The translations under genes were made by a program, and so were the position numbers. The notes under the pieces were generated by a model. It was not told where the DNA came from. It saw nothing but the letters and a program-made list of their open reading frames with translations, and did no database searches. Shown here piece after piece: positions 10,601 to 63,928 of a DNA stretch of 64,000 nt; position 1 is the first letter of the stretch, and each line of letters opens with the position of its first letter. Source of the DNA: Heterodontus francisci (lineage: Eukaryota); the NCBI RefSeq assembly GCF_036365525.1, contig NC_090404.1, positions 6,324,001 through 6,388,000 of the forward strand, written 5' to 3'.

Positions 10601-11639
10601 TAAACAGAGGCAGGATCGAGTGTAATATCAACAAATGCAGGGTATAATGTAATATCACCAGAGACAGGGTCTTGTGTAATATAATCAGAGACAGGGCCTA
10701 GTGCAGAAAGAACAGAGAAAGGGCCTAGTGTAATATAAACTGAGACACGGTGAAGTCTGGTGATAACTGACACAGGGTCCAGTGTAATTTAAACAGAGGA
10801 CACAGCGAAGTGCAGTGATCACTGTGACAGGGTCCAGTGTAGTATAAACCGAGAAAGGTTTTAGTGTAATATAAACTGACAAGGTCTAGTTTAATGTAAA
10901 CAGAGACAGGGCCGAGTGTAATAGAAACAGAGATAGGGCCTAGAGCAGTAAGAACAGAGATAGGTTCTAGCATAATATAAACAGAGACACGGCGAAGTCC
11001 AATGATAACTGAGACAGAGTTGAGTGTAATATAAACTGCGGCAGGTGCTAGCATAATATAATATGAGACAGGGCACACTGCAGTTATAACTGAGATAGGA
11101 TTACGTGTAATATAAACAGAGATAGGGCCTAATGTTACATGAACAGAGACGGGCCTATTGGGTTTAGTGGAATATAAACAAAGACTGGAAATAGTGTAAT
11201 ATAAACAGAGGCAGGGCCTAGTGCAGTAAGAACAGAGATAGGATCTCATATAATATAAACAATGGCAGGGCCAACACAATATTAACGCAGAGGGAGGGCC
11301 TAGTTTAATATAAAGAAACATGTTTCAGTGGAGTAATAACAGGGACCTTCTCTAGTATAACATGAACAGAGAAAGAGCCCTACTTTAATATAAATAGAGC
11401 AACAGCCTAGTGGAATATAAACAGAGAAAGAGCCTAGCATAATGTAGCCAACACACGTTTTAGTGTACTATAAACAGGACGGGTCTGGTATAATAAAAGC
11501 AGAGAAAGAACCTGGTGTAATATAAACAGAGACACGGCGAAGTCCAGTGAAAACTGAGGAAGGGTCTAGTGTAATATAAACAGAGACATTGGCTTGTCCA
11601 GCATGAATTGAGAATGGGTTTAGTGTAGTATAAACCAAT

Positions 11640-14600
11640 TATGCAGGACATCTGAAGGGGGAGGGTGAACAATCAGAGGTCCAAACTAATTTGGCAGGGG
11701 GATGGGATACAGAGTGGAGGTACAGTAGGGGATGATGCACAGTCAAACATAAAAGAGAAACTGAGTCAGTCTGGAAGTCGGAGCAAATATAGACCTATTA
11801 CGGCATAAGTGAAAAATGCAAGGCTGGATTGCATCTATTTTAATGCAAGGAGTCTTACTAGTTAGGCAGATGAATTGAGGGCGATGATTAGCACATGGGA
11901 TTATGATATTATTGCTATCACAGACACATGGTTGAGGGAGGGGCAGGACCAGCAGCTCAATATTCCAGGGTATAGAATCTACAGGCGAGACAGGAGAGGG
12001 GGTAAAAGAGGAGGTGGCATTGCACTATTGATCAAGGAGTCAATTACTGCAACAAGGAGGAATGATATCTTGGAAGGTTCCGCAAATGAGGCCATATGGG
12101 TAGAACTTAAAAACAAAAAGGGGCTGGGAGTGTACAACAGGTTTCCAAACAGTCAGGGAGACATAGAGGAGCAGGCATGTAGGCAAATCTCAGAGAGGTG
12201 CAAAAATAACATGGTAATAATAGTAGGGGATTTCAACTTCCCCAATATCAACTGGGATAGTCTTAGGGCAAAAGGATTAAAGGCGTCAGAATTCTTAAAA
12301 TGCATACAGGAGAGCTTTTTGAGCCAGTACGTAGAAAGTTCAACAAGAGAAGGGGCAGTACTGGACATAATCCTCGGGAATGAAGGCGGACAAGTGGTAG
12401 AAGTTTCAATGGTGGGGGTGGGGGGATAGTGACCATAATTCTGTAAGTTTTAAGGTAGCTATGGAAAAGCAAAAATAAGGACCAGAAATAAAGGTACTGA
12501 ATTGGGGGAAGGCCGATTTCAATATGATAAAACAGGGTCTGGCCGAAGTGGACTGGGAGCAGCTACTTGTAGGAAAGTGTACATCAGACCAGTGGGAGTC
12601 ATTCAAGGAGGAAATAGTGAGATTTCAGAGCCAACATGTCCCCGTACAGGTGAAGGGTAGGAATAACAGGTCCAGGGAACCCTGGATGTCAAGGGATAGA
12701 CAGGATTAGACCAGGAAAAAAAGGAGGCTTATGGCAGAGTCAGAGCGCTGAAAACAGCGGAGGCATCAGAGGAGTATAGAAAGTGTAGGGGGTACTTAAA
12801 AATGTAAATAGCAGAGAGAAGAGGGGACATGAAAACTCACTGACGGGCAAGATAAAGGAAAATCCTAAGGCATTTTGTAAGTATATTAAGGGCAAGAGGA
12901 TAACCTGGGATAGAGTTAGGCTCATTAGGGAACAAAGTGGAAATCTGTGTGGAGCCGCAGGACATAGGTGAGGTTTTAAATGATTATTTTTCATCTGTGT
13001 TCACTATGGAGAAGGACCGATGTAGGTGTAGAGATCAGGGAGGGGGATTGTGATAGACTTGAACAAATTAGTATTGAAAGGGATGAATTATTAGCTGTTT
13101 TAGCGGGCATAAATGAGGATAAATCCCCAGGCCCAGATGAGATGTATCCCAGGCTGTTATGCAAGGGAGAAGATAGCAGGGGCTCTGATACAAATTTTCA
13201 AATCCTCTCTGGCCACAAGAGAGGCACCAGAGGATTGGAGTACAATGAATGTCCATTATTCAAGAAGGGTAGCAGGGATAAACCAGGTAATTGCAGGCCG
13301 TTAGGTCTAACATCAGTGGTAGGGAAACCATTGGAAACAATTCTGAGGGACAGAATTAACGTCCACTTGGAGAGGCAGGGATTAATCTGGGATCGTCAAA
13401 ATGGCTTTATCAGGGGGAGATCGTGTCTAACTAACTTGATTGAATTTTTCGAGGCTGTGTCTAGATGTGTAGATGAGGGTAAAGCAGTTGATGTAGCCTA
13501 CATGGACTTCAGTAAGGCTTTTGATAAGGTCCCATATGGGAGATTGGTTAAGAAGGTAAGAGCCCATGGCATCCAGGGAAATTTGGCAAATTGGATCCAA
13601 AATTAGCTTAGGAGGCAGAGGGTGATGGATGATGGTAGTTTTTGCGAGTGGAAGCCTGTGACCAGTGGTGTACCACAGGGATCGGTGATGGGACCCTTGC
13701 TGTTTGTAGGGTACATTAATGATTTAGATGTGAATATAGCAGGTATGATCAGTAAGTTCGCAGATGACACGAAAATTGGTTGAAACGTAAATAGTGAGCT
13801 GGAAAGCCTTAGATTACAGGACGATATAGATGAGTTGGTAAGAGGGACGGAGCAGTGGCAAATGGAATTTAATCCTGAGAAGTGTGACGTGATGCATTTT
13901 GGGAGGACTAAAAAGACAATGGATGGTAGGACCCTAGGAAGTACAGAGGGTCAAAGGGACCTTGGTGTACTTGACCATAGATCACTGAAGGCAGCAGCAA
14001 AGGTAGATAAGGTGGTTAGGAAGGCATATGGGATACTTGCCTTTATTAGCTGATGCATAGAATATAAAAGCAGGGAGGTTATGACTAAGCTGTGTAAAAT
14101 GTTAGTTCGGCCACAGCTGGAGTGCTGTGTACAGTTCTGGGCACCACATTATAGGAAGGACGTGATTGCACTGGAGAGGGTGCAGAGGAGATTCACCAGG
14201 ATGTTGCCTGGGCTGGAGAATTTCAGCTATGAAGAGAGACTGAAAAGGCAAGGGTTGTTTTCCTTAGAGCAGGGAAGGCTGAGGGGGGACATGATTGAGG
14301 TATACAAAATTATGAGGGCCTTGAAAAGGTTAGATAGTTCGAAACTTTTTAGCTTAGCGGAGGTGTCAATAAGCAGGGGGCATAGATTTAAGGTAAGGGG
14401 TAGGTGGTTGAGAGGGGATTTGAGGAAATACTTTTTCATTACGAGGGTGGTTGGAATCTGGAATGCACAGCCTGAAGAGGTGGTAGAGGCAGGAAACCTC
14501 ACAACACTTAAGAAGTATTTGGATGGACACTTGAAACGCCATAGCATACAGGGCTACGCACCAAGTGCTGGAAAATGGGATTAGAATACTAAGTTGCTTG

Positions 14601-14668
14601 TTGGCCAGCACAGACAAGATGGGCTGAAGGGCCTGTTTCTGTGCTGTATGACTCTATGACTCTATTGA
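11640..14668 (+). mobile_element. CR1-clade LINE, near-complete but frameshifted ORF2
   Basis: APE ORF 11875..12429; RT ORFs 12980..13606 and 14081..14584; (TATGACTC)n tail; flanked by TA(T/C)AAACCAAT at 11629-11639 / 14669-14679. Confidence 0.92.
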
Positions 14669-17600
14669 TACAAACCAATACTGTGTCTAGTTCAGTAATT
14701 ACTGAGACAGGGCCTAGTGCAGTAAAACTGAGATTGGGTCTCGTATAGGATTAACAGACATGCTCTGCTGTAATTGAATCAGATACATGTTCCAGGGTAA
14801 TATGAAATGAATCGGGTACAATAATAATTGAGACAGAGTCTCGTGTAATGCGAACAGGGACATGGTATAGTGTCGTCATAAATGAAACAGGGCCTAGTAT
14901 AAGGAAAAAGTTAGACAAGGCCCAGTGCCGTTTTAAGTGATAGAGGACATTGTGCAATATAAATTGAGACAGACCATAGTGCAGTAATACTGATACAGGA
15001 CCTCGATTTCTATGTGCTGAGACATGGACAAGTGCAGCAAAACTTGATTGTAGTCACATTTAACGGAGAGATGGTTTAGTACAGTTATAACTGAGACATG
15101 GTTTTATGTGATGGAAACAGAAACGTGATCTAGTGCAGTAATAACCTAGACAGGACATTGTGTAATACAAGCAGAAAACCAGGTCCACGACATTAACACC
15201 TGAAATTGGGCGAGTGTCGAAATAATTGAGGCATGGACTGCTTTTATATGATTAGAGGCAACGTTTGCTGTAATACAAATAGGAAAATGAGCTAGTAGAA
15301 TAGAAACAGGGATGCCATCTAGCAAAATACAGACTAAAGCAGGCTCTGGCTTCATATAAACTGAGTCAAGTTCCAGTGTAATATAAACGGAGACAGGATC
15401 TTGTGTAATATAAACAGAGACAGGATCTAGGGGAATATAATCAGAGATGGGGTCTAGTGTAACATAAACGGTGACAGAGTGTCATGTAATATAAACAGAG
15501 ACGTGGTCCAGTGTATTATTACCAGAGACAGAGCCTAATTTATTACAAACAGAGAAATGGTTCAGTGCAATATAAACAGAGACAGCATCTGGTGTAAAAT
15601 AAACGGAGACAGGATCTCGTGTACTCTAATCAGAGATGGGGTCTAACATAAACAGTGTAATGTAATGCAAACAGAGACAGGGCCTAGTGTAATATAAACA
15701 GAGACAAGGTCTACAGTAATATAAGCAGAGACAGGGTCGAGTGTAAGATGAACAAGGACAGGGTCTAGTTTAATCTAAACAGAGATACGGCAAAGAACAG
15801 TGATAACTGAGACAGGATGTAGTGTAATATAAAAAGAGACAGGATCTGGTGTAGTATAAACAGAGACAGGGCCTAGTTTAATACAAACAGACAGAGTACA
15901 GTGTAATAGAAACAGTGATAGCATTTAGTGTAATATAAACAGAGACAGGATCTAGTTAATATAATCAGAGATGGGGCCAAGTGTAACATAAATATAGAGA
16001 GGGTGTAGTTTAGTAAAACAGACACAGGGCCTAATATAATATAAACAGAGAAAGGGCCTACTTTAATATAAACTGAGACAGGGTTTACATTAATATAAAC
16101 CGAGGCGGGGTCCAGTGTAGTATTAACAGAGACATGGTATATAGTAACGTAAACAGAGACAGGGTCTTGTATAATATAAACAGAGACAGGGCGTATTGTA
16201 ATACAAACAGGCAGGTACTAGTGTAATATTGACAGAGAAAGGGCTTAGTGTAATATAAACAGAGACAGGTTCTCACATAATATAAACAGAGAACGAGGCT
16301 AATGTAATTTAAACATAGACAGGGTCTACAGTAATATACACAGAGACAGCATCATCAGTAAACAGTAATATAAACAGAGACAGGGCCTAGTTGCATACAA
16401 ACAGATGCAGGGTCCAGTGTATAATAAAATAAACATTTTCTAGTGGAATATAAGAAGAGAGAGGTCTAGTGTAACCATAAACAGAGGCAGGGCCTTGTAT
16501 AATATAAACAGAGGCAGGGTCTAGTGCAATGTAAACACACAGGGCACAGTACAATATAAACACACACAGGGTGTAGTTTAATGTAAACAGAGACATGTTA
16601 CAGTGTAATGTAAACAGAGAGGGTGATCCTAGTGTAATATAAACAGAATATTAATAAAGAGAGACGGCTTAGTTTGATATGAAGAGACATGTTCCAGAGG
16701 AGTAATGGCAGAGACATGGTCCAATTTAATATAAACAGAGATATTGACTTGTCCAGCATTTGAGACTGGGTTTAGTGTAGTACAAACAGACACAGGGTTT
16801 GGTGCAGCAATAACAGATACTTTGCCGAATTTAATATAAACAGAGACATAGTCCTGTGTAGTAACAGCTGAGACAGGATCAAGTGCAGTAGTAACTGAGA
16901 GAGGGACTGATGCAATATGATCGGAAACAGGCTTGTTGTAATATAAATAGGGGCAAAGTCTTGTGCAGGAATACAGAGACAGGGTCACGTGCACCAATCA
17001 TTGATACAGGACCTCTAGTAATATAAACCAACACTGGGTCCAGTTCAGTAATTACTGAAATAGGGCCTAGTGCAGTAAAACTGAGATTGGGTCTCGTGTA
17101 GTATTAACAGACATGGTCTAGTGTAATTTAAACTGAGACATGTTCCAGGGTAATATGAAATGAGTCGAGTACATTAACAATTGAGACGGAGACTCGTGCA
17201 ATGTGTACACGGACATGGTATAGTGTAGTGAAACAGGACCTATTATAAGAAAAACCTGAGGCACGGTCCAGTGCAGTTTTAAGTGATAGAGGACATTGAA
17301 CAAGATAAACTGAGACTGATCCTAGTGCAGTGATACTGACACAGGACCTCGATTTCTGTGAGATGAGACATGGACAAGTGCAGCAATAGGTGAAGCAGGA
17401 TTCCGTGTTTAGTTAGGCATTTAACAGAGAGATGGTTCAGTACAGGAGTAAAAGCGACATGTTTTGTGTGATAGAAACAGAAATATGGTCTAGTTCAGTA
17501 ATAACCTAGACAGGGCATTGAGTAATACAAGCAGAAAGCAGGTCCACTATATAAACAACCGGAGATTAGGCGAATGTCGGAATAATTGAGGCATGGACTG

Positions 17601-17867
17601 CTTTTGTCTGATTAGAGGCAACGTTTGTTGTAATACAAATAGGAAAATGAGCTACTGTAATATAAACAGACACCATCTAGTATAATATAGACGAAAGCAG
17701 GCTCTACTTAATATATACTAAGAGAGGGTCTAGTGTTAGATAAACCGATATTGGAAATAGTGTAATATAAACAGAGACTGGGTCTGCTGTAATATAAGAG
17801 AGACAGGGCCCAGAGCAGTAATAACTGAAGCTGCGCCTGTTTCATGCAATGTGGACAATCGAGCTTT

Positions 17868-17886
17868 CACTGACACCTGGTGGTTG
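17868..17886 (-). promoter_or_regulatory. CTCF-like motif (paralog of 1623-1641)
   Basis: Reverse complement CAACCACCAGGTGTCAGTG, one mismatch in the core. Confidence 0.45.
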
Positions 17887-18118
17887 TGTTTGGCCATTGC
17901 TCCTATTGTGAAAATGTCGATGTCTGTTACTGTTTCTGATATTAATACACCAAGAAACAACTTGCATTGATACACAAGATCATCACCTTCTCTAGGAGGT
18001 CCCAACATTTGAAGTGCAACTAATTCCAGATAAACGTGGCCGATTTGTGTACAGAAACATCAATGATAGAGCAACGTGGCTGAACTCTTGTTTCTGTATT
18101 TTTATTGAAATTGGTTAA

Positions 18119-18265
18119 TTAGTTTGCAGCACCTGCGACAGAATCTGCCTCTCAAAGATTGGCCTTCACAGCCATCAGCAAAGATGCCCCAAGAAAGACA
18201 TCCTACCTAAATGGGTTGCTGGCTGCGTGTGCATCATCTTTCATAGATGGAAGGATGCCAAACCA
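18119..18265 (+). mobile_element. RTE-clade LINE 3' tip
   Basis: Encodes CSTCDRICLSKIGLHSHQQRC (C-terminal zinc finger); TSD TGGTT(A/G)A; absent from the paralogous site at 1389-1395. Confidence 0.75.
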
Positions 18266-19754
18266 TGGTTGAAGGGAGGAATGTTGACCAAGGCACAGTG
18301 TGGGGACCATGGGAGCTTTAATGTCTACCTCAACAGAGAAGCTGGACGGGAGAGATTATTCGTTCATGATATCATCTGAAAGACAGTGGGGCCGATTTTC
18401 CCCAATACTGTAAGTGCCACTGAGCCTCCAATAGAACCAAGGTTAGACCTTCAGCTGAAGCATTGGCTTAGCCCCCGTTTAACGCAAGATGCCATGTTGG
18501 TAAAGGAGTTGACACTTGCGCTCGGATCAGTCGCCCAGAGGATCATTCATCAGCGGATTGTCACTGATACCGCCTCTGAGCCTCATTAAAGAGGCTGTGC
18601 TCCATTTTGGCAACTAATACTTGACCGCCCTTCTCTCCAAACAGCAACCAACTGATTGGGATTAAACAAGTTGTTGCAGATGGTTTCTGTGCTAGTTAAA
18701 GGTACATCACCTTTTACTGTCCATCGGCTGCTGGAAGTTTCAAGAGGACTTTTAAATGTCATCAGGATCATTTCTGGGACACTTTTTCGACTTCGCCAAC
18801 ACGGTATCAATATTTAGCCTGTTCACGCAACTATTTCCTCCAATAGCTTTGATGGTTTAGATCATTAATAACTGAGGCACAAACTGGCATACTGTATGAA
18901 GGGGCATGGTTTAATGGTGTAACTAGAGATATGGCCTTTTGCAACAAAAACTGAGATGCAGCCTAGCATAATATAAAAAGCAACATAGTCTAGTGTAACA
19001 ATGTGGGATATGATTTTGTGTAATATAAATGGGATATGATGTAATGCAGTAATAACTGAGTAAGGCCTAATGTATTATAAACAGAAAAGTGGTCTCCTGC
19101 ACTAATAACTGCACATGGTCTAATGTAGTAAGAAGAGATAGAGCCTTGTGTAATAGAAACAGAGATATGGTCCATTGTAGTAATAAGTGAGACAGGGCCT
19201 AGTTTAATCTGAGCAGAAGCGAAGTCTAGTGTTGTAATAGCCGAAAATGGGTCCTGTGAATATAAAAAAAGAGATGATATAATGCATTGCCAACTGAGAT
19301 AATGTCAAGTGTAACAAACAGGTTCTAGTGAAATATCAGCAGATACTTGATTTAGTTGAGTACTAACTGCGACAGCATCTAGTGCAATAAAATTAGAGAC
19401 ATGGTTTAATCACTGAGACAGGGAGTGGTCAAGATGAACAAAGAGTGAGATGTAGTTTAGTGCGCAAGAACTGAGACATAATCGTGCATAATATACAGAG
19501 GCAATCTTCTGCAATTAAAACGGAAACATGACCATAGTAACATCAACAGAAATACGGACGGCTGTAATGTTACAGAGTCGAGTGTAATGTAATGTGTACC
19601 AAAGGAACATGGATATAGAACCATAGAAAAGTTACGGCACAGTCCCACGTGTCTGCGCCGGCTGAAAAAACTAGCCGCCTAATGTTTATATTACATTAGG
19701 CCTTGTCTCAGTTTTCTTTGCACGAGGCCACAGACTACTCCAGTAGAAAACTAA

Positions 19755-21280
19755 TGATTCTGATAAACCTTTACAAAACACCAGTAGGCCTCAGCTGGAG
19801 TATTGTGTCCAATTCAGGGTACCACATTTTCAGAAGGACATCGAAGCGTTGGAGAAGGTCCAGAAAAGATATTTTAAAATGGTACCAGGTGTGAAAGAGA
19901 GGCTGGAGAAGCTAAGGTCATTCTGCTGAGAGCAGAGAAGGTTAAGAGGAGATTTTGTACAGTTGTTTAAAATCATGAAATGCTTTGATAGAATAAATAA
20001 GATGAAAATATTTCCAGTGGCAAAAGGGTCGATAATCAAAGGGCACAGATTCAAAGTAAATAGCAAAGTAACCAAGGGCTACATATAACTGACTTGGATC
20101 TTGGAATACAGAGTAGAATCTCAAACTTTGCTGATGACACCAAACTTGGAGCTGTAGCAAACAGTCAGAATGATATGAAACGCCTGCAACAGGCCATAGA
20201 TAGGCTAGCGGAGTGGGCAGACAAGTGGCAGATGGACTTTAATACTGACAAGTGTGAAGTGATGCATTTTGGCAGAAGGAATAGGAAGAGGCAATATGCA
20301 CTTAATAGTGCAGTTCTAAAGAGTGTGCAGGAGCAGAGGGACCTGCGGGTGCATGTGCATCTATCTTTGAAGGTAGCATGACATATTGGGAGAGTGGTTA
20401 AAGCATATGGGATCCTGGGCTTCACAAACAGAGGCATTGAGTACAAAAGCAGGGAAGTTATGCTGAACCTTTATAAAGCTCTGGGTAGGTCTCAACTGGA
20501 GTATTGCGTCAAATTCTGGGCACTAAACTTTAGGAATGATGCGAGGATCTTTGGGAGAGATTTATCAGAATTGTTCCAGGGATGGTGAATTTTTGTTACA
20601 AGGTTAGGTTGGAAAAACCTGGGTTATTCTCCTTAGAACAAAGGAGATTCAGAGGAGAGTTAATAGAAACGTACAAGATTATGACAGGCTTAGGTAAGTT
20701 AGACAAGGAAAAACTGTTCACATTAATTAATGGTACAAGGACTAGGGGACACAGATTGAAGGTTTAGGGTAAGAGATGCAGGGGGAATATGGGGAAACAC
20801 TTTTTTACACAGTGGATGGCAATAACCAGGAAGTCGCTGCCCATGAGTGTGTTGGAAGTGGAGACAAGAAATTACTTCAAAAGGAAATTGGATAACCACT
20901 TGAAGGAAATAGACTTGCAGAGCTACAAGGAACAAGCGAGACAGTGGGACTGACTGAATACCTCTGCGAGGAGCCGGCATGGATTCGATGGGCCGAATGG
21001 CCTCATTCTGTGCCGCAAATGTCTCGATAATCCAATGACTCTCGGCCATATGAGGGGGATGATAAATGACAGAGCAAGTTGTTATTATCTGGAATGTACT
21101 GCCTGAAAGGGTGGTGGAAGCAAATTGAATAATAACTCTAAAAAGGGAATTGAATAAACACTTAAAATGGAAAAAAAATGCACGGCTCTTGGAAAACAGC
21201 AGAGAGTGGTGGAATAATATGCTAGTTCTTTGAAGAGCTGGGACAGTCCTGAAAGGCTGAATGGCCTCCTTCTCAGCTTT
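19755..21280 (+). mobile_element. Nested CR1 RT/3' fragments
   Basis: FADDTKLG, KWQMDFNTDKCEVMHFG and LEYCVKFW motifs. Confidence 0.85.
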
Positions 21281-21359
21281 ATTATTATAGGAGTGCATGA
21301 TTTACCGGCTCAATCCAACACCCCTTTTACACCTGTTGTTAATAAAAAGAACAAAAGAA

Positions 21360-21800
21360 AAAAGTTGCATTTGTGTGGCGTCTTTCATGACCACAGTATG
21401 TCTCAAAGGCTTTGCAGCCAATGAGCTACTTGTGAAGTGTCGTTCCTGCTGTAATGTAGGAAATGCGGCCCACGATTTTCACGTAGAAAACTTCACAAAT
21501 GGCAATATGGTAATGCCCATATAATCTGCTTTTGTCATGTTGATTGAAGGATAAATATTGATCAGGACACCGGGGATAACTCCCACGCACTGCTTCCAAA
21601 TAGTGTCGTGGGATCTTTTACACCTGAGAGGGCAGATGGCACCCTTTCGAACCAGTGTAGGGGTTTCATGTCCCATCCGAAAAACGGTATCACTGACAGT
21701 GCAGCACTCCACTTGAGTGCGGTGTAATTTTTTTGCTCATTTCCTGGAGTAGGATTTGAAACTGGGACGTGCTCGTTCCAACTGAGCCACGGCCGATGAG
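21360..21800 (-). mobile_element. Old SINE (Deu/SacSINE-like)
   Basis: Homologous to 7190-7650 and 62780-63215. Confidence 0.55.
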
Positions 21801-23695
21801 CTGGGTTTGTTTTGCGAATTAAAGAAGAAGAAATAGGTAAATAGAACTCCCGGATTTTAACAGTTCCACTTCAGATTATATACACACACGGCGCGCAGTA
21901 CAGACACTAGCTACAATTGTGCTCTTGAATCCAACATCAGAATAGCTCTGCCATTCTGGGACTTGTACTATAACATCCAACCATTTAGTCGATTACCCAG
22001 AACTGCACAATAATTTCTCGCCTACGTGGACAAAGTTGGTCATTTTCTACAAAAGAAATTTCAGTGGACTATGAATCATTAAATAATTACCGATCATTAA
22101 TAGATTGAGATACATTAATCGATTGGAAGTGATGAAAGGCTTTGGAATCATTGATACATTGGCAGACATCAATCAGTAGCAAGTTATCAATTGCTTGAGA
22201 AAGTTGATGGCTGCGGATGTATCAATAGGTTGGAAACATCAATGGATTGAGAAACATTTAATGTTTGGGAAACACGACGAAGGACAAGAATTTTGAGAAA
22301 TATCATTTGCTTTGAATATGACACCCACGTAACCCCACCCTTGTGTACGAGGGAAATGCCTATAGATTCGCAAATGTCTGTCTGTCCATCTGTTTCTGTT
22401 AGTTGGCGCAGAGACAGTTTGTTACCCCTGATGAACGTGAATGGGAACTGTGCACAAACCAGATTAATTATCCTAGATTATGGGAGAGAGTCTCTTATAC
22501 AAGGAGTGGGATCAATTGGGAATCGATAAACCGGGAGCCGTTCATCTAAAAACACATCATCAATTATACCTCAATATTAATAATACATTTTGTAGCGCCT
22601 TGGAACATTCGGAGCACAAATTTGTGTGGAGAAATAATTACTGAATATTGACATACTGGCATCTTATTGGAGGTTTTATATCCATGCAGCGGGTTTCCCC
22701 GACACAAAACATGTCTAACACAGAAGTGCAACCAGATGAAAAGCAGGATTCTGCATTAACCTCATGCTATAGAGTACGGGCCTGAGAATAATCTTCAAAA
22801 TTGTGATTGAAATCACCATATTCAGCACCATCACTGACTCATCTCTGTCCGGCTCATATACCATGCCCACTCTTACCATATGTCTCCATCCGGCTCCTGC
22901 TTATGTGCTGATATTTGTTGTTGAAACAGGAATCAAGACTCATGGGGGCAGGCAGCAAAGTGGAGTAAGACCACAATCAGATCAACCATGATCTTATTGA
23001 ATGGTGGAGCAAGCTCGAGCGGCCGAATAGCCTACTCCTGCATCGATTTCTTATGATATTATCACAGTGACCCTAAACCACCAACCTAAGCAGATCCCAT
23101 TGAAATCCTGACCTGACCCGTCCAATTCATTTAGTGCATCAATGGACTGAATGGAGAGGCTCTGGGGAGAGTGGTTAAAGGAGTTCAGGACATTTGAATT
23201 TGCAACCACAATGTCTAATGCCCACAGAATATATTTCACTGTGGCAATGACTTAGAATGACTATATGGAGGTACAAAAAAGTTAGAATTCATATTCTGTT
23301 AATGTGTGACCTTCCTAGTCTCTATTGGAGGGAAGAGGAAAAACGTATCCAATAGATTGCTATTTTTCTGCTGTGATTAAAGTAATTCGGGTAAAGGTGT
23401 TCTGTGTGCTTTGTTGTACATGAAAAACCACATGTCTACAAATAATGAAATTGCCCCTTCTCCACCCAGTCATATTTTTGAGACGAAGATTCTCCATCAG
23501 CAGAGAAGGACCATCAGTACCACAGGGATATCTCCAGGCATCTCATTGTGAATTCAACTCAGGTCCATCTATTCATTTCTCACATAGACATCCAACTGTC
23601 CACTCATTCCAGCATCGCTGCATCTGTCCCTCCATCCACGCAAATAAGCATATTCATCTATTTCAGAATGTATCGCCTCTCTGATATCCTCATTA

Positions 23696-23696
<1 letters not shown>

Positions 23697-23775
<79 letters not shown>
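23697..23775. repeat. (TCTG)n(TCTA)n tetranucleotide microsatellite
   Basis: Direct observation. Confidence 0.95.
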
Positions 23776-23776
<1 letters not shown>

Positions 23777-25481: not shown

Positions 25482-25572
25482 TGCCGGTCACTGGGACCGC
25501 AATACAACAGTCCGGGAGCCGGTTTGCTCAGTGAGTTCTTACCAGAACCATTTTCCCCGAATTGCCAGAAGG

Positions 25573-51470: not shown

Positions 51471-51499
51471 CTTGGCATTTCTTCACGGACGAAGATTTT

Positions 51500-51842: not shown

Positions 51843-52109
51843 CCTAGAGAGGACCGAGTTTAAAATAAAGAGACATATTTCATTGGATTAATAACAGGGA
51901 CCTACTCTTGTATAATATAAGCAGAGAAACAGCCGAATGTCATATAAATAGAGCAAGAGTGTAGTGCAATATAAACAGAGAAAGAGCCTAGTATAATGTA
52001 ACAGACAAAGGGTCTAGTGTTATATAAGAACAGAAAGAGTCTAGTGTAATATCGTCAGAGACAGGGACTCATGTAATATAAAAAGAGACAGTCGTACTTA
52101 ATATAATTA

Positions 52110-52420
52110 CATAGGAAGAAACATTTTCCCTTAGTGGAGGGATCAATAACCAGGGGCATAGATTTAAGGTAAGGGGCAGGAGGCTTAGGGTGGATTTAAG
52201 GAAAAAAAATTCACCCAGAGGGTGGTTGGAATCTGGAACGCAATGCCAGAAGAGGTGGTAGAGGCAGGAACCATCACAACATTTAAGAAGTATTTAGATG
52301 AGCACTTGAAGCGCCATAGCATACAAGGCTATGGGCCAAGTGCTGGAAAATTGGATTAGAATTGATGGCCGGCACAGACACGATGGGTCGACTGGCCTGT
52401 TTCTGTGCTGTATGACTCTA
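52110..52420 (+). mobile_element. CR1 3' fragment inserted in the satellite
   Basis: Closely similar to 14340-14660; TATGACTCTA tail. Confidence 0.85.
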
Positions 52421-55400
52421 CAAACAGAGACTGGGCCTGGTTTAATATACACAGATACAGGTTCAAGTGAACCAGGAACAGAGAAAAGGCCTAGTGTAGT
52501 ATAAACAGAGACAGGGTCCAGTGAAATATAAACAGAGACCTGGTCCAGTCTAAGATAAATAGAAACAATGCCTGGCATAATATAAACAGAGGCAGCTTCT
52601 AATGTTATATAAACAGAGACAGGGTCCAGTGCAATATTAGCAGACACATATTCTACTGTAATATAAACAGAACGAGGTCTAGTGCAACATAAACAGACGG
52701 GGTGTAGTGTAATTTAAACGGAGACAGGGTTCAAAGCCATATAAGCAGACACATGTTGTAGTGTACTATAAACAGAGAGAGGGTGTACATTGATATAAAT
52801 GGAGACAGTGCTGAGTGTAGTATCAACAGAGACGTGGTCTGGTTTAATATCAACAGAGACAGGGCCTAGTGTAATAGAAACCGAGATAGGTCTGGAGCAG
52901 TAATAACAGAGATAGGCTATAGTGTAATATAAACAGAGACACGATGAAGTCCAATGAGAACTGAGACAGGGTTGAATGTAATATAAACTGAGGCAAGGCG
53001 TAGTGGAACATAAACTGAGACGGGGCACACTGTAGTAATAACTGAAATAGGATCTAGTGTAATATACACAGAGACAGGGCCTAATTTAATATAAACGGAG
53101 ACAGGGCCTACTGGAGTAATATCAGAGATAAGACCAAATGCAACATAAACAGAGACAGAGTCTAGTGTAATTTAAATATGGAAGGGTCTGGTGTAATTTA
53201 AACAGATACATATTCAACTGTAATATGAAATGAGCCAGCCACAATAATAATTGAGATAGAGTCTCTGACTCTATGAATCAGAGTTTCATAAGTGAAACAG
53301 GGCCTAGTATAAGAAAAACTGAGACAAGGCCCAGTGCAGTTTTAACTGATAGAGGACATTGTGAAATATAAACTGATACAGACCCTAGTGCAGTAGTTAG
53401 TGATGCAGGACCTCGAATTCTATGAGCTGAGACATGGACAAGTGCAGCAATACATGAGACAGGATTCCATGTTCTAGTAACATTTAACAGAGAGATGCTT
53501 CAGTACAGTAATAACAGAGACATGGATTTGTGCAATAGAAACAGAAACGTGATCTAGTGCAGTAATAACCTATTCCCGGCATTGTGCAGCACAAAAGAAG
53601 CCAGGTCCACTATGTTAACACCTGAAATTGGGCGAATGTAGAAATAACTGAGGCATGGACTGCTTTAATATGATTAGAGGCAATGTTTGTCGCAATACAA
53701 AAATGAGCTAATGTAATATAAACAGGGACAACATCTAGTATAATGCAGACTAAAGCAGGATCTGGCTTAATATAAACGGAGTAAAGTTACAGTGTAATAT
53801 AAACAGAGACAGGGCCTAGTTTAATACAAACTGACAGGGTACAGTGTACTTTAAAGAGCGACAGCATCTTGTGTAATATAAACAGAGACTGTATGTTGGA
53901 TAATATAATCAGAGATGGGGACTAGTGTATCATAGGCAGAGACAGGGTCAAGTGTAATATAATCAGAGAATGGGTCTACTATTATATAAACAGAGACAGG
54001 GTCTACATTAATATAGACAGCGGCAGAGTCCGCCATAATATTAGCAGAAACAGGGTCTACAGTTATGTAAACAGGAACAGTGTAATAGTGTAATATAAAC
54101 AGAGACAGCATCTCGTGTAATATAAACAGAGACAGGGCCAAGTGCAATATATACACAGACAGGACCTTGAGTAGTATCAACATAGACAGGGCCTAGTGTA
54201 ATGTAAACCGAGACAAGGTCAACAGTAATATAAGCAGAGTCAGGGACGAGTGTAATGAGAAGAGACAGAGCCTAGTGTAATATAAACAGAAACCTGGTCT
54301 AGTGTAATATAAACAGACAGCTCCTAGTGTAATGTAAAGAGAAACAGGATCCAGTGTAGTATAAACAGAGACAGAGTCTGCAGTAATATACACAGAGATA
54401 GTGTTGCGTGTAATGTGAACAACAACAAAGCCGAGTTGAATATCAACAGAGATACAGCAAAGTCCAGTGATAACTGAGAGAGAGTCGAGTGTAATATAAA
54501 CAAAGACAAGATCTAGTGTAAAATAAAAAGATACAGGGCCTAATTTAATTCAAGCAGACAGAGTACAGTGTAATAGAAACAATGACAGGATTTAGTGTAA
54601 TATAAACAGAGACATGATCTAGTGTAATATAATCAGAGATGGGGCCAAGTGTAACATAAACATATACAGGGTTTAGTGTAATACAAACAGAAACAGGGCC
54701 TAGTGTAATATAAACACGTAAAAGGCTGACTGTAATATAATGTAATATGGTCCTGTATAGTAACAGCTGAGACAGGATCGAGTGCAGTGGTAACTGAAAG
54801 AGGGACTGATGCAATATGATCGGAGGCAGGCTTGTTGTATTATACATAGGAGCAAGGTCTTGTGTGGAAATACTGAGACAGGGCCTAGTGTACCAATTCT
54901 TGATACAGGACCTACAGTAATATAAACCAGCACTGTGCCGAGTTCAGTAATTACTGAGGCAGGGCCTAGTGCAGTAAAACTGAGATTGGGTCTCGTGCAG
55001 TATAGCCATGCTCCAGTGTAATTTAAACAGTTACATGTTCCAGAATAATATGAAACGAGTCGAGTACATTAACAATTGAGACAGAGATTCGTGAAATGCG
55101 AACAGGGAAATGGTATAGTATAGCCATAAGTGAAACAGGGCCTGTTATAAGAAAAAGCTGAGACACGCCCCAGTGCAGTTTTAAGTGAGAAAAGACATTG
55201 GGCAATATAAACTGATACAGATTCTAGTGCAGTAATTGCTCATACAGGACCTCGATTGCTATGAGCTGAGACACGGCCAAATGCAGCAATACGTGAAGCA
55301 GGATTCTATGTTCTCGTAACATTTAACAGCGAGATGGTTCAGTACAGTAATAACAGAGACGTGGCTTTGTGTGATAGAAACAGAAACATGGTCTAGTGCA

Positions 55401-55753
55401 ATAATAACCTAGACAGGGCATTCTGTAATACAAGCTGAAACATGGTCCACTATATTAACACCTGAGATTGGGCCAATGTAGAAATAACTGAGGTATGCAG
55501 TACTTTTGTCTGATTAGACGCATCGTTTCTTGTATTACAAATAGGAAAATGAGCGAGTGTAATATAAACAGGGACACCATCTAGTATAATATATGCTAAA
55601 GCAGGCTCTACTTAATATAAATTGAGAGAGTGTCTAGTGTAATATAAACAGACAATATCTAGTGTAATTATAAACAGAGACTGGATATAGTGTAATATAA
55701 ACAGAGACAGGGTCTAGAGCAGTAATAACTGAGGCAGCGCCTGCTTCATGTAA

Positions 55754-58451
55754 TAAAGAACAAACAAAGAACAAAGAACAGTACAGCACAGGAACAGGCC
55801 ATTCGGACCTCCAAGCCTGTGCCGATCTTGATGCCTGCCTAAACTAAAACCTTCTACACTTCTGGGGACCGCATCCCTCTATTCCCATCCTATTCGTGTA
55901 TTTGTCAAGATGACTCTTAAACGTCGCTATCGTACCTGCTTCCACCACCTCCCCCGGCAGCAAGTTCCAGGCACTCACCACCCTCTGTGTAAAGAACCTG
56001 CCTCGCACATCCCCTATAAACTTTGCCACTCTCACCTTAAACCTATGCCTCCGAGTAACTGACTCTTCCACACAGGGAAAAAGTTTCTGACTATCCGCTC
56101 TTTCCATACCGCTCATAACTTTGTAAACCTCTATCATATCACCACACCACCTCCGTCGTTCCAGTGAAAACAATCCGAGTCTATCCAACCTTTCCTCATA
56201 GCTAATGCCCTCCAGACCAGGCAACATCCTGGTAAACCTCTTCTGTACCCTCTCCAAAGCCTCCACGTCCTTCTGGTAGTGTGGCGACCAGAATTGCACG
56301 CAATATTCTAAGTGTGGCCTAACTAAAGTTCTGTACAGCTGCAGCATGACTTGCCTATTTTTATACACTATGCCCCGACCGATGAAGGCAAGCACTCCGT
56401 ATGCCTTCTTGACTACCTTATCCACCTGCGTTGCCACTTTCAGTGACCTGTGGATCTGTACGCCCAGATCTCTCTGCCTGTCAATACTCCTAAGGGTTCT
56501 GCAATTTACTGTATACTTCCTACCTGCATTAGACCTTCCAAAATGCATTACCTCACATTTGTCCGGATTAAACTCCATCTGCCATTTCTCCGCCCAAGTC
56601 TCCAACCGATCTATATCCTGCTGTATCCTCTGACAATCCTCATCACTATCCGCAACTCCACCAACCTTTGTGTAGTCCACAAACTTACTAATCAGACCAG
56701 CTACATTTTCCTCCAAATCATTTATATATACGACAAACAGCAAAGGTCCCAGGCTGATCCCTGCAGAACACCATTAGTCACATCCCTACATTCAGAAAAA
56801 CACCCTTCGAATGCTACCCTCTATCTTCTATGACTGAGTCAATTCTGTATCCATCTTGCCAGCTCACCTCTGATCCTGTGTGACTTCAACTTTTGTACCA
56901 GTCTGCCATGAGGGACCTTGTCAAAGGCTTTACTGAAGTCTATATAGATAACATCCACTGCCCTTCCTTCATCAATCATCTTTGTCACTTCCTCAAAAAA
57001 CTCAATCCAATTAGTGAGACACGACCTCCCTTTCACAAAACCATGTTGCCTCTCGCTAATAAGTTCGTTTGTTTCCAAATGGGAGTAAATCCTATCCCTA
57101 AGAATCCTCTCCAATAATTTTCCTACCACTGACTTAAGGCTCACCGGCCTATAATTTCCTGGATTATCCTTGCTACCCTTCTTAAACAAAAAGACAACAT
57201 TGGCTATTCTCCAGTCCTCTGGGACCTCACCTGTAGCCAATGAGGATGCAAAGATTTCTGTCAAGGCCCCAGCAATTTCTTCCCTTGCCTCCCTCAGTAT
57301 TCTGGGGTAGGTCCCATCAGGCCCTGGGGACTTATCTACCTTAATGCTTTGCAAGACACCCAACACCTCCTCCTTTTCGATAATGAGATGACTGAGACTA
57401 TCTACACTCCCTTCCCTAGGCTCATCATCCACCAAGTCCTTCTCTTTGGTGAATACTGATGCAAAATACTCATTTAGCACCTCGCCCATTTCCTCTGGCT
57501 TCACACTTAGATTCCCTTCTCTGTCCTTGAGTGGGCCAACCCTTTCCCTAGTTACCCTCTTGCTCTTTATATACATATAAAAAGCCATGGGATTTTCCTT
57601 AATCCTGTTTGCCAATGACCTTTCATGACCACTTTTAGCCCTCCTGACTCCTTGCTTAAGTTCCTTCCTACTGTCTTTATATTCCTCAAGGGATTCGTCT
57701 GTTCTTAGCCTTCCAGCCCTTACGAATGCTTCCTTTTTCTCTTTGACGAGGCTCACAATATCCCGCGTTATCCAAGGTTCCCGAAACTTGCCAAACTTAT
57801 CCTTCTTCCTCACAGGAACATGCTGGTGCTGGATTCTAATCAACTGACATTTGAAAGGCTCCCACATGTCAGATGTTGATTTACCCTCAAATAGCCACCC
57901 CCAATCTAAATTCTTCAGTTCCCGCCTAATATTCTTATAATTAGCCTTCCCTCAATTTAGCACCTTCACCCGAGGACTGCTCTTACCCTTATCCAAAAGT
58001 ACCTTAAAACTTATGGAATTATGGTCACTGTTCCCGAAATGGTCCCCTACTGAAACTTCGACCACCTGGCCGGGCTCATTCCCCAATACCAGGTCCAGTA
58101 CGGCCCCATCCCTAGTTGGACTGTCTACATATTGTTTCAAGAATCCCTCCTGGATGCTCCTTACAAATTCTGCCCCATCCAAGCCCCTAGCACTAAGTGA
58201 GTCCCAGTCAATATAGGGGAAGTTAAAATCACCCACCACTACAACCTTGTTACCTTTACATCTTTCCAAAATCTGTCAACATATATGCTCCTCTACCTCC
58301 CGCTGGCTTTTGGGAGGCCTGCAGAAGACCCTCAACATCGTGACTGCACCCTTCCTATTCCTGAGCTCCACGCATATTGCCTCACTGCACGACCCCTCCG
58401 AGGTGTCCTCCCGCAGTACAGCTGTGATATTCTCCTTAACAAGTAATGCAA
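55754..58451 (-). mobile_element. Young 5'-truncated CR1 LINE with 13-bp TSD
   Basis: ORFs 57952..58269, 56839..57867, 55844..56743; (TTCTTTG)n tail; TSD CTGCTTCATGTAA / CTGTTTCATGGAA; empty site at 17837-17849. Confidence 0.95.
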
Positions 58452-58477
58452 CTGTTTCATGGAAACAATCAGCCTTT

Positions 58478-58496
58478 CATTGACACCTGGTGGCTG
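58478..58496 (-). promoter_or_regulatory. CTCF-like motif (paralog of 1623 and 17868)
   Basis: Reverse complement CAGCCACCAGGTGTCAATG. Confidence 0.4.
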
Positions 58497-58728
58497 TGTT
58501 TGGCCATTGCTCCTATTGGGAAAAAGTCGATGTCAGTTACTGTTTCTGATATTAATACATCAATAAACAATTTTCATTGAGATACCAGCTCATCACCTTC
58601 TCTAGGAGGTCCCAACATTTGAGGTGAAACTAATTCCAGATGAATGTGGCCGATTTGTGCACAAAAACATCAGTAATAGAGCGAAGTGGCTGAACTCTTG
58701 TTAATGTATTTTTGTTGATCTTGGTTGA

Positions 58729-58884
58729 TTAGGTCGCGCCTTTGTGGCACTTATGACAGAGCCTGCCTCTCAAAGATTGGACTTCACAGCCATCAACAAA
58801 GATGCGCCAAGAGAAGACACCCCACCTAAATGGATTGTTTGCCGTGCATGCATCATCTTTCATAGATGGAAGGATGTCAAACCA
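58729..58884 (+). mobile_element. RTE 3' tip, paralog of 18119-18265
   Basis: Perfect TGGTTGA TSD at 58722-58728 / 58885-58891. Confidence 0.75.
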
Positions 58885-60639
58885 TGGTTGAAGGGAGGAA
58901 TGTTGACCAGGACACAGTGTGGCTACCATGGGAGCTTTGATGTCCGCATCAACAGAGAAGAGGGAGAGGAGAAATTATTGATTCATGATATCACCTGAAA
59001 GACAGTGGGGGCGATTTCCCCCGATACTGTAAGTGCCGCTGAGCCTCCAATGGAACCAAGGTTGGACTTGAAGCGGAAGCATTGGTTTAGCCTGCGTTAA
59101 ACGGAAGATGCCATCTTGGTAAAGGAATAGACACTTGCGCTCGGATCGGTCGCCCAGAGGATCATTCATCAGCTGACTCTCACTAATATCGCCTGTGAGC
59201 CTCGTTAAAAAGGCCACGCTCCAATTTCATAACTAGTACTTCACCGCCCCTCTCTCTAAACAGCAACCAACTGATAGGTAGTAAACAAGTTGTTACAGAG
59301 GGTTTCTGCTCTAATTAAAGTTACATCACCTTTTACTGTACATTGGCTACTGGAAGTTTCAAGAGGACTTTTGAAACCCATCAGGATAATTTCTGGGACA
59401 CTTTTTCGACTTCGCCAACACCCTATCAACATTTATTCTTGGAACGTCTCTAAGGGCCTCACCCAAAAAGAGTAAAATCTGTGTGACTTGACCTTATATG
59501 CGTCACCAGGAGAAAGAGAGTGCTTAGACATTGGCGTCTTGCTGGCTGGACGAATGGGGAGGACATGAGGCCAGGCAGAGCAGCCCCAGCTTCTGCAGGA
59601 GAGTGAGACCGAAGGGTGAGGTGGTGTACTGCCCCATTGCGGGCACAGGACATCCCTCCTCCTCTGGATCTTCTCCACTAGGACCTACAATACGGTGTCT
59701 GAGAATATGTGCACACACTCAGTTGTTTCCTGAGCCATCCTGAAACATGTCACTATCTGTCAGCCAGGCCACCCCACACTTATCGTAGAAGTGGATGCAT
59801 GGATCCCACATATACTACTTCAAGAAAATTGCAGTTAATCAGCACTTGCGTGCTAAATCTACAGGTCTCTGGATTAGCAACTCCTGGCAAGTTCAATTCT
59901 GGCAATAAGCAATTAGGATCAAAATTGTGTGCTGCATCCAGACACTCAACCAGGGGTGTTTCATTAACACAGTGCCCATTTAACCCCTGCTTTCACTCTT
60001 TCACCAAATAACCCCGAAGGGTTTGTTAAATATGCATGTGTATATATGTGCAAAATACGGCATATTGTTTTCAATTCCACAAACAGAAATAATTATCTTC
60101 AACAATTATTTATTTTTTACATTTATTTAATTCAAAACATAATTGAAGATTGAGGGTAATGAGCAACTACCCACCAGTATCTGCACTTAATTGTTAAGTG
60201 ATCTCCTCACCAATCCACAGAAGCTGCTGGTAAATACTTCGTGTGTGTGATGATTTGTGCAAGTGATGATAAAAATGAAACTATCTGTACCTGGCGTGAC
60301 GTTAATGAATCCGTAAATGACTGATTTATTACTTCCCTAGTTTGCAAAGGAATGAAAAACTTGCTGCATTCCAGTGAATTTCGCACCATTTCTGGTTCCA
60401 CAGATTTTATTTTTAGCCTGTTAACTAAACTATTTCCTCCCCTGCATCTTCCAATCGTTTATTTGGTTTAGATCATTAATAACTGAGGCACAAACTGACA
60501 TACTATAAAAAGTGACGTTGTGTAGTGGTATAAATAGACACATGGCTTATTGCAACAAAAAACTGAGACACAAGCTAACATAATACAAAAAACAACATAG
60601 TCTAGTGTAATATAAGTGGGATATGATATCGTGCAGTAA

Positions 60640-60957
60640 GGCTCCTGAGACAGCATCTTCCAAACCCGCGACCTCTACCAACTAGAAGGACAAATGCAAC
60701 AAATGCATGGGAACAAATTCCCCTCCAAGTCACACACCGTCCTGCCTTGGAACTATATTGCCGTTCCATCACTGTCGCTGGGTAAAAATCCTGGAACTCC
60801 CTTCCTAACAGCACTGTGGGTGTACCTACATCACATGGACTGCAGAGCTTCAAGAAGGCAGCTCACGACCATCTTCTCAAGGGCAATTAGGGATGGGTAA
60901 TAAATGCTTGCCTAGCTAGCGACACCCACATCCCATGAATGAATAATTTAAAACAAA
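60640..60957 (+). mobile_element. LINE 3' fragment (CR1/L2 group)
   Basis: Absent from the paralog near 19050; AGTAA TSD (60635-39 / 60958-62); A-rich tail. Confidence 0.7.
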
Positions 60958-61205
60958 AGTAATAACTGAGCAAGGCCTAATGTATTATAAACAGGCAAAT
61001 TGGCTTCTGCACTAATAACTGCACATGGCCTAACGTAGTAAATAGCGACGGAGTCTTGTATAATAGAAACAGAGATATGGTTCAGTGCAGAAATAAGTGA
61101 GACAGAGCCTCGCGTAATCGAATGTAAGCGTAGTCTAGTGTTGTAAAAACCTAGAATGGATCGCGTGCAATATGACCTAAGAGATGATCTAATGCAGTGC
61201 CAACT

Positions 61206-62700
61206 AATGAACTTTTACAAAACACCGGTAGGCCTCAGCGGGAGTGCTGTGTCCAATTCAGGATACCACATTTTCAGAAGGACATCCAGGCATTGGAGAG
61301 GGTCCAGAAAAGATATTCTAAAATGGTACCAGGTATGAAAGAGAGGCTGGAGAAGCTGAGATCATTCTGCTGATAGCAGAGAAGGTTAAAAGGAGATTTT
61401 GTACAGCTGTTCAAAATCTTGAAGTGTTTTGATAGAATAAATGAGATGAAAATATTTCCAGTGGCAAAAGCATCGATAACCAAAGGGCACAGATTCAAAG
61501 TAAATAGCAAAGTAACCAAGGGCTACATATAGCTGACTTGGATCTTGGAATACAGAGTCGAATCTGAAAATTTGCTGATGACAACAAACTTGGAGCTGTG
61601 GCAAGAAGTGAGAATAATGTGAAACACCTGCAACAGGCCATAGATAGGCTGGCGGAATGGGCAGGCAGGTGGCAGATGGAATTTATTACTGACAAGTGTG
61701 AAATGATGCATTTTGGCAGAAGGAAGGGGGAGAGGCAATATACACTTAATGGTGCAATTCTAATGAGTGTGCAGGAACGGAGGGACCTGGGAGTGCATCT
61801 TTGAAGGTAGCAGGTATTAAGAGAGTGATTAGTAAAGCTTATGAGATCTTGAACTTCATAAACCGAGGCATTGAATACAAAAGCAGGCAAGTTATGCTAA
61901 ACCTTTATAACGCTGTGGTCAGGTCCCAACTGGAGTACTGCGTACAGTTCTGGTCACTAAACTTTAGGAACGATGCGAGGGTCCTTGAGAGAGATTTAGC
62001 AGAATTATTCCAGGGATGCAGGATTTTTGTTACAAGGTTAGGTTGGAAAAACTTGGGTTACTCTGCATAGAACAAAGGAGATTCCGAGGGGAGTTAATAG
62101 AAATGCACAGGATTTTGGCAGGCAGTTAGTAAGTTAGACAAAAAAAAATTGTTCACATTAATCAATGGTACAAGGACTAGGGGACACAGATTGAAGGTTT
62201 AAGGCAAGAGATGCAGGGGGAATATGAGGAAACACTTTTTTATCCATTGGATGGTAATGACCTGAAACTTGCTGCCCACGAAGGTGGTGTAAGTGGAGAC
62301 AAGAAATGACTTCATAAGGACATTGGATAACCAGATGAGGGAAATAGACTTACAGGGCTACGAGGATCAAGTGGGGGAGTGGGATGACTGAAAATCTCTG
62401 TGAGGAGCCGGCATGGATTCGATGGGCAGAATAGCCGTAAATGTCTCTATAACCCAATAAATTTCGACGATATGAGGGGGACGATAAATGACAGAGCAAA
62501 TTGATATTATCTGGAATGTACTGCCTGAAAGGATGGTGGAAACAAATTAAATGAATACTTTAAAAAGGGAATTGAATAAATACTTCCAATAGAACAAATG
62601 TTGCACGGCACTTGGAAAACAGCAGGGAGTATTTGAATAATTTGTTAGTTCTTTGAAGAGCTGGTACAGTCCTGAAAGGCTGAATGGCCTCCTTCTCAGC
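61206..62700 (+). mobile_element. Nested CR1 fragments, paralog of 19755-21280
   Basis: Same fragments and junctions as the upstream copy. Confidence 0.85.
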
Positions 62701-63619
62701 TTTATCATTATAGGATTGTATGATTTACCGGTTCAATCCAACACCCCTTTTTACACCTATTGTTGATAAAAAAGAACAAAACGAAAAATGTTGCATTTAT
62801 ATAGCGCCTTTCGCGACCACAGGACGCCTCAAAGGCTTTGTAGCCAATGAGCTACTTGCGAAGTGTCGTTCCTGTGTCATGGAGGAAACCCGGTACACGA
62901 TTTTCACACAGAAAACTCCACAAACGGCAATATGTTAATACCCATATAATCTGCTGGTCATGTTGATTGAGGGATATATATTGATCAGGATAACTCTCCT
63001 GCACTGGTTCCAAATAGTGTTATGGCATCTTTTACACCTGAGAGGGCAGATGGTACCATTTCGAACCAGTGCAGGGGTTCCATGTCCCATCCAAAAAACG
63101 GTATCACTGACAGTGCAGCACTCCACTTGAGTGCCGGTGTAATTTCTTTGCTCAATTCCTGGAGTAGGTTTTGAAACTGGAACGTGCTCGTTCCAACTGA
63201 GCCACGGCCGATGATCTAGGTTTGTTTCGCGAAGTAATCAAGAAGAAATAAGAGAATAGAATTCCAGGCATTCAACAGTTCCACTTATATCAGAAAAAGT
63301 CTGGAATTATACTGCAACTTTCAACCATTTATTAGATAACCCAGAACTGCACGAATGATGAACGTGAATGGGAACTGTGCACAAACCAGATTAATAATCC
63401 TAGATCACGGTAGAGAGTCTCTTATACAAGGCGTGGGATCAATTGGGAATCGATAAACCGGGAGCCGTGCAACTAAAAACACATCATCAATTATACCTCA
63501 ATATAATAATATATTTTGTAGCGCCTTGGAACATTCGGAGCAGAAATTTGTGTGGAAAAGCAATTCCTGAATATTGACATACTGGCATCTTATTGGAGGC
63601 TTTATATCCATACAGTGGG

Positions 63620-63928
63620 TGTTAGCGGGAATGAATCTAGAAGAATCATTCGACACTCAGGTCTGCTCCAATGTCAAACAGTTTATTTTGTTCCGCCAGC
63701 GGGGAGCAGGTCACTGGGCTGTCCAGATGCCTCTCCACTGAACAAAGGAAAATCATCCAGACTTATACATTTTCAAACAGTTACTCAGCCCATCCCAGCC
63801 GGACATGGTCCAATCACAATGATTATCGATTATATACATTGATTATTAGAGCCAATAGAAGCGGTTACTAGGCATGACCGGCCCATACACAGATAGGGGA
63901 TTACTCATGATGTTTTCACCTCGTTACA
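63620..63928 (-). mobile_element. Possible LTR-like insertion
   Basis: Starts exactly where paralogy ends; TGTTAGCG...CGTTACA termini; minus-strand AATAAA; no clear TSD. Confidence 0.35.

Follow-up and report, generated by a model that had tools for sequence, protein, structure and literature searches.

The immunoglobulin heavy chain (IgH) genes of sharks are arranged as many self-contained miniloci, and the current picture of their multiplication and independent rearrangement derives mainly from cDNAs and from the widely spaced loci of the nurse shark. In the horn shark, Heterodontus, IgH clusters of 18-20 kb with a VH identity of >90% have been described (PMC2191167). Nurse-shark IgM miniloci lie at least 120 kb apart (PMC2435157), spacings of 120 to >200 kb for IgM and of 82 to >200 kb for IgW have been given elsewhere (PMC5192425), and in four elasmobranchs the clusters of each isotype were found together on one linkage group (PMC12227049). 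In this work we analysed a stretch of 64,000 nucleotides of Heterodontus francisci (contig NC_090404.1, positions 6,324,001 to 6,388,000), called the window from here on, in which one IgM minilocus lies between two directly repeated blocks, A and B. The blocks are best read, with a probability that we put at about 0.58, as the remains of an ancient tandem duplication that comprised an IgM cluster and its 5' flank and was followed by copy-specific decay and then by the insertion of an element resembling a long terminal repeat (LTR).

Results

The window holds one unrearranged IgM heavy chain minilocus on the plus strand, at 25573-43025, and its segments are listed here together with their recombination signal sequences (RSS) and transmembrane (TM) exons.

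25573-25618, plus strand: leader, with its ATG at 25573
25745-26049, plus strand: VH, followed by an RSS with a 23 spacer
~26500-26514, plus strand: D1, RSS spacers 12/22
~26894-26906, plus strand: D2, RSS spacers 12/12
~27300-27347, plus strand: JH, preceded by an RSS with a 23 spacer
34867-35163, plus strand: Cmu1
35359-35676, plus strand: Cmu2
38972-39280, plus strand: Cmu3
39766-40157, plus strand: Cmu4 with the secretory tail
42744-42871, plus strand: TM1
43017-43025, plus strand: TM2

The VH, the two D and the JH segments are packed into ~2 kb (25573-27347), each with its RSS, and the spacer series across VH-D1-D2-JH is 23, 12/22, 12/12, 23. Both the secretory and the membrane splice form give only the terminal stop on translation, every splice site is GT-AG, and the distance from the ATG to the TM2 stop is 17.5 kb. 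An earlier note on this DNA had placed an IgM cluster between two blocks, and this was borne out with all exons mapped and open in frame. The minilocus is intact, and by its sequence it is of the bullhead-shark type, an assignment made because the best named protein match of Cmu4 is the membrane C region of Heterodontus francisci (94%), with 87-90% for the remaining C domains. Compared with the described Heterodontus IgM minilocus, the order and orientation of the segments and the RSS pattern are alike, the length is 17.5 kb against 18-20 kb (PMC2191167), and the gene itself shows no difference. A second V or C exon, or a remnant of one, was searched for in the window with 8 shark heavy-chain queries and none was found.

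The subject of this analysis is what flanks the gene, namely the two blocks and the sequences at their ends; CR1 denotes a long interspersed element (LINE), SINE a short interspersed element, and K2P the Kimura two-parameter distance.

9878-11635, plus strand: array of a 27-bp satellite holding the left edge of the A/B homology
11291-22693, plus strand: block A, the IgM 5' flank, made up of 27-bp satellite, a CR1 copy, a non-coding core, a CR1 mosaic and a SINE-like piece
17837-22693, plus strand: core of A, matching 58452-63619 of B over 3,824 columns at 88.0% (K2P ~0.13)
19749-21330, plus strand: three-fragment CR1 mosaic of A, recurring at 61202-62750 in B and diagnostic of segmental duplication
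22429-22693, plus strand: last segment common to A and B, 93.9% identical to 63356-63619 (16 mismatches in 264)
22694-25572, plus strand: promoter-ward flank, represented once in the window; the part compared with contigs (to 23680) has divergent paralogs among them
51846-63619, plus strand: block B, the paralog of block A
63620-64000, minus strand: LTR-like sequence cutting B, beginning with TG on the plus strand; identified by motifs

Alignment of the two blocks for identity, which the earlier note had proposed, yielded a collinear chain of 10 segments in direct orientation, with 6,576 columns at 87.0% overall and the core at 88.0%. The collinear paralogs first placed at 11285-22694 and 51843-63620 could be narrowed by this self-alignment to the coordinates listed. 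They had been described as direct repeats of ~11 kb, and this is correct for orientation and span (11,403 bases in A and 11,774 in B), whereas homology is confined to ~6.6 kb of aligned columns, of which ~2.4 kb is degenerate 27-bp satellite. At the right end the offset between the blocks is 40,926-40,927 bp, in agreement with the ~40.9 kb reported before, and along the blocks it varies between 37.8 and 41.9 kb owing to indels of 0.3-2.8 kb. Some ~770 bp of the satellite of B (52420-53187) matches A out of order. Divergence in the core is fairly even, at 83-94% identity per 200-column window and with no recently homogenised tract, and the longest perfect run is 51 bp in the six core segments scored.

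Diagnostic of the origin of the blocks is the CR1 mosaic. The coordinates of its second open reading frame step backwards at 20058/20079 and 21066 in A and at 61502/61523 and 62479 in B; the two mosaics are 88.7% identical, whereas for the longer CR1 fragments in the window the identity to a reference CR1 copy is 57-79%. Since the mosaic stands in the same order in A and B, the pair is, on the alignment, a true segmental duplication. The nested transposable element junctions that were said to be common to both blocks are indeed there, as the mosaic breaks and the CR1 3' end match: this end, at 14330-14660 in A and 52107-52420 in B, is 86% identical between the blocks and 75% identical to the copy in the intron. 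Furthermore, the satellite is in register, with higher-order unit 1 of A closest to unit 1 of B (87.8 vs 83.8%) and unit 2 closest to unit 2 (86.2 vs 84.3%).

Each block also carries pieces that the other lacks. In B there are an extra 2.7-kb CR1 and two stretches of ~980 bp and ~325 bp; in A the surplus consists of 2.8 kb of CR1, 457 bp and 420 bp.

11636-14664, plus strand: CR1-type LINE in the satellite of A, of which only the last ~310 bp survive in B
14665-17836, plus strand: degenerate 27-bp satellite in two higher-order units
22009-22428, plus strand: 420-bp segment that A shares with other paralogs and B lacks; contig joint 22008->22429
55755-58452, minus strand: CR1-type LINE in B only, with Pfam matches to endonuclease and reverse transcriptase, splitting the junction of satellite and core
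59430-60408, strand not assigned: B-only stretch of ~980 bp without a Pfam match

The family names CR1, SINE and RTE are what we take these repeats to be; only the reverse transcriptase and endonuclease domains come from Pfam.

At the right end the homology stops at 22693/63619. In A, 2,879 bp separate this point from the leader ATG at 25573, so the statement that the upstream copy ends ~2.9 kb before the VH leader was accurate. The further statement, that the downstream copy is cut by an insertion at 63620, also agrees with what is seen, since unrelated LTR-like sequence starts there. Read on the minus strand it contains ATTGG (inverted CCAAT) at 63856 and 63814, TATAA at 63767, AATAAA at 63687 and a terminal TAACA, and these LTR-type motifs start exactly at the break of B. 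The sequence is likely to be the 3' end of a reversed LTR and thus a putative insertion. The last 264 columns before the break are 93.9% identical, against 87.5% elsewhere (Fisher p=0.001, or 0.08 after correction for the window scan), which hints weakly at conversion or at constraint close to the gene.

The same region was examined in assembled contigs from 4 whole-genome runs, which represent one sample and one study, and of which two are equal-sized and may be one data set; they are the 4 of 8 listed runs that contain the stretch, the other 4 being capture/RAD runs. Contigs were placed on 21850-23680 at 80% likeness, with the repeat tail 22966-23041 dominating, and the material considered comprises 40 of 559 variant rows, 15 of 19 joints, 24 of 791 loose ends and 32 of 56,699 pieces; contig depth was not taken as copy number. 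Every one of the 4 runs has 1 contig with the B-type joint 22008->22429, and therefore B exists as DNA in those data; the other paralogs retain the 420 bp, from which it follows that B lost them. Divergent contigs span 22694 unbroken: in 3 of the 4 runs one covers 22475-22896 with 57 differing letters, and in the fourth run one covers 22455-22816 with 58. At each of 9 listed sites in 22674-22866 the alternative letter occurs in 4-7 contigs. Among the joints listed, four share one depth value (6.11 in X1-X3), which suggests one contig collinear from ~22400 to past 23360. The joint 22613->22694 was considered as the far junction of the insertion in B and ruled out, because B matches A well over 22614-22693, and because differences of the other paralogs at 22691 and 22693 would in any case make an alignment begin at 22694. 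It can be concluded that the flank is a multi-copy family, that the continuation seen in A is the shared state, and that the break is particular to B: as paralogous contigs cross 22694 unbroken, this position is no natural edge of the duplicated segment.

At the left end no collinear homology was detected beyond the blocks (1-11290 compared with 40200-51845); the 4 plus-strand matches are short repeat fragments. A period of 41 kb would place the TM exons of a previous cluster at ~2 kb, and there is no Ig exon left of A. The earlier note had spoken of a duplication unit of about 41 kb: one interval of 41 kb is there, whereas a repeating period, and hence a regular 41-kb array, is not seen. The pattern at the left edge is compatible with a single event, since one tandem duplication with its breakpoint in the 27-bp satellite predicts exactly that homology is absent left of both blocks. 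The left edge of B adjoins a pile of LINE fragments (45.4-51.8 kb), which may hide its true start. Additionally, a third, inverted and more diverged partial copy of the flank is found at 1297-5156 on the minus strand (80-84%), corresponding to 9209-9622, the satellite and 17837-18366 with the internal order kept, and cut by a CR1 at 1-1291. An IgH cluster facing left may accordingly lie to the left of the window in a head-to-head arrangement; divergent IgM pairs are present in the great-white table (Table S1, PMC12227049).

Discussion

The duplication proposed above can be described as follows. A first unit would start in the 27-bp satellite at ~11.3 kb, include the whole cluster and end at ~51.8 kb, where a second unit would begin with B. 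Block B would then be the 5' flank of this second unit, with a probable LTR insertion breaking it at 63620. After the duplication B would have gained the 2.7-kb CR1, the ~980 bp and ~325 bp stretches and the LTR-like element, and would have lost 2.8 kb and 420 bp. Homology to 22694 onward would resume past the insertion, and the next VH and leader would be expected near 66.5 kb plus the length of the insertion. In our judgement the resumption of homology is to be expected with good confidence; that a VH or VH remnant follows downstream we hold to be slightly favoured, and that the second cluster is intact is a tentative expectation, which we would sooner doubt than assert. Still more speculative, and rather unlikely, is the combined proposal that a second IgM cluster, intact and of like orientation, follows ~41-50 kb on and that the 27-bp satellite arrays at the left edges of the units mark the sites of shark IgH cluster duplication. 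The possibility raised in the earlier note that a tandem cluster follows within a few kb is plausible, and it has gained indirect support because B ends at an LTR-like insertion while the other paralogs pass the equivalent point toward the promoter.

Several points weigh against this interpretation. The window ends at 64000 and the predicted second VH would lie beyond it. The LTR is recognised from motifs, with no target-site duplication visible, as its far end is past the window. All four runs stem from a single sample, from which the assembly itself may have been made, and they are not independent. Of the 791 loose ends, the 24 listed do not include the junction between the far end of the insertion and 22694; all 24 fall in the repeat tail 22966-23041. 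The inverted copy at 1297-5156 shows that pieces of the flank also move by local rearrangement. Finally, published IgM spacings are far wider than the ~41-50 kb implied here, which is less than half of the shortest that we found reported.

Spacings were computed start-to-start from Table S1 of PMC12227049 on one linkage group per species. In the great white shark 190-2097 kb separate the 9 listed IgM models, and in the stingray 102-2400 kb separate the 4 IgM models and 141-343 kb the 12 NAR models. Stingray IgW models 24-35 kb apart were set aside as a measure of cluster spacing: they are mostly 'C only' and may be split models. None of the published spacings comes from the horn shark, where cluster numbers are higher, and we found no paper on inter-cluster spacing or on duplicated IgH flanks in the horn shark, older mapping studies and most subscription papers being outside the search.

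The alternative that survives best is that B is an orphan, either because the flank alone was duplicated or because the second cluster was deleted, possibly at the LTR, so that no VH would be met within 20 kb. We regard this as a serious possibility, though not a probable one. It agrees with the negative search for further V or C remnants in the window, with published IgM spacings of 100 kb or more, with the large indels that B has taken, and with the inverted partial copy, which consists of flank pieces without a visible gene. Opposed to it is the manner in which B ends: its homology reaches to 2.88 kb short of the equivalent of the ATG and stops only at insertion-like sequence, other paralogs run on past that point, and identity peaks at that very end, with the statistical reservation given above (93.9%; p=0.08 when scan-corrected).

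A second alternative, that unequal crossover between misaligned A and B adds or deletes this IgM cluster at the present day, was put forward in the earlier note and seems very improbable. The geometry would suit it, with direct orientation, a distance of 41 kb and the whole cluster in between, an old conversion may be preserved in the end segment of 93.9% identity, and for close repeats short matches can suffice, as in alpha-globin, with <50 bp at a distance of 5 kb (PMC2583991). Like the low-copy repeats that support non-allelic homologous recombination (NAHR), the blocks are in direct orientation, span ~11 kb and enclose a dosage unit (PMC2583991). They differ in identity and continuity: human meiotic NAHR has been associated with >95-97% identity and segments of 300-500 bp, figures that are human and not shark, and the human standard for such repeats is >95% over 10 kb or more (PMC2583991), to be set against 87.0% over 6.6 kb here, while of a few hundred bp of uninterrupted identity the six core segments offer 51 bp. 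Moreover, indels of 0.3-2.8 kb break the register, the even divergence of the core (83-94%) leaves no recently homogenised tract, and if a second cluster exists, the cluster cores, with >90% VH identity, would be better substrates. The claim is thus unsupported for the present, with 87-88% identity and the 51-bp run far below published NAHR needs; the blocks appear too diverged now for frequent unequal crossover and read better as a product of duplication than as its substrate. Nor are the two possibilities of the earlier note true alternatives, as in a tandem duplication B is the 5' flank of the next unit; A and B probably belong to the duplicated unit and are not an independent flanking repeat.

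That the likeness of A and B arose by independent insertion of the same repeats, or by duplication in the assembly, is hardly credible: both blocks do consist mostly of repeats (27-bp satellite, CR1, SINE-like), of which the satellite is also found elsewhere in the window, but several unrelated fragments keep their order and junctions in both, 88% between A and B compares with 57-79% for independent CR1 copies, a false duplicate would be near 100% identical, and the B-specific joint occurs in contigs.

The tandem duplication that we favour is old, and nothing more precise is kept of its age: with the epaulette-shark pedigree mutation rate of 7e-10 per generation (PMC10587355), a K2P of 0.13 would correspond to ~9e7 generations, which is implausibly many. 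That shark IgH clusters multiply by duplication is to be expected, and the mechanism is ordinary; what the duplicated flank adds is the extent and the relative age of one duplication unit. The nearest parallel is with G2A and G5, linked IgM loci of the nurse shark at a distance of 120 kb, where several miniloci born by duplication share a chromosome (PMC2435157), and likewise with the IgH clusters on the TCR-alpha/delta linkage group, again several duplicated miniloci on one chromosome (T cell receptor, TCR; PMC12227049). In contrast to G2A and G5, the spacing here would be ~41-50 kb if B heads a cluster, and the flank can be traced as a duplicated unit. Such a VH-to-VH spacing, if true, would be the sole notable point of the locus beside the at least 120 kb of the nurse shark. 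A second cluster at <50 kb would make inter-cluster V-D/J joining and co-activation scorable in repertoire data, and so close a pair would be a natural test of why V(D)J joining stays within the cluster and of how neighbours are switched on independently. If no cluster follows, the locus would represent an ordinary decayed duplication.

Other features of the window

Rfam gave 0 matches across the whole window, and Pfam 0 families in 27 read-throughs, which covered four non-coding stretches in six frames and a fifth in three. Directly at the left edge of B, at 51481-51842 on the minus strand, there is a broken reading frame without a Pfam match, similar to the C-terminus of an RTE-type LINE. 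Inside the otherwise degenerate satellite array the part at 9907-10600 is nearly homogeneous, a sign of recent local turnover, and this homogeneous satellite yields a spurious repeat reading frame of 299 aa (9889-10788, minus strand). A SINE-like element of ~340 bp occurs three times, at 499-847, 33921-34249 and 46884-47210 (80-88%), two of the copies being inserted into CR1 copies; we take it to resemble the shark HE1 SINE.

Within and around the IgM gene some further structures were noticed. Right after JH, 27441-27744 and 28064-28359 form an old direct duplication (68%), at a spot where an intronic enhancer might be expected. The J-C intron contains at 30022-30219 a 200-bp self-inverted element (85%) similar to a miniature inverted-repeat transposable element, with related pieces at 49816-49942. 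A minisatellite with 63/129-bp units matching at 84-91% is situated at 44558-45396, 1.3 kb past the IgM polyadenylation region; it has a stop-free frame of 291 aa, and nothing suggests that this is coding. Among the protein matches, one labelled Aeromonas veronii is 86% identical to shark Cmu4 and is probably shark sequence contaminating a bacterial record.

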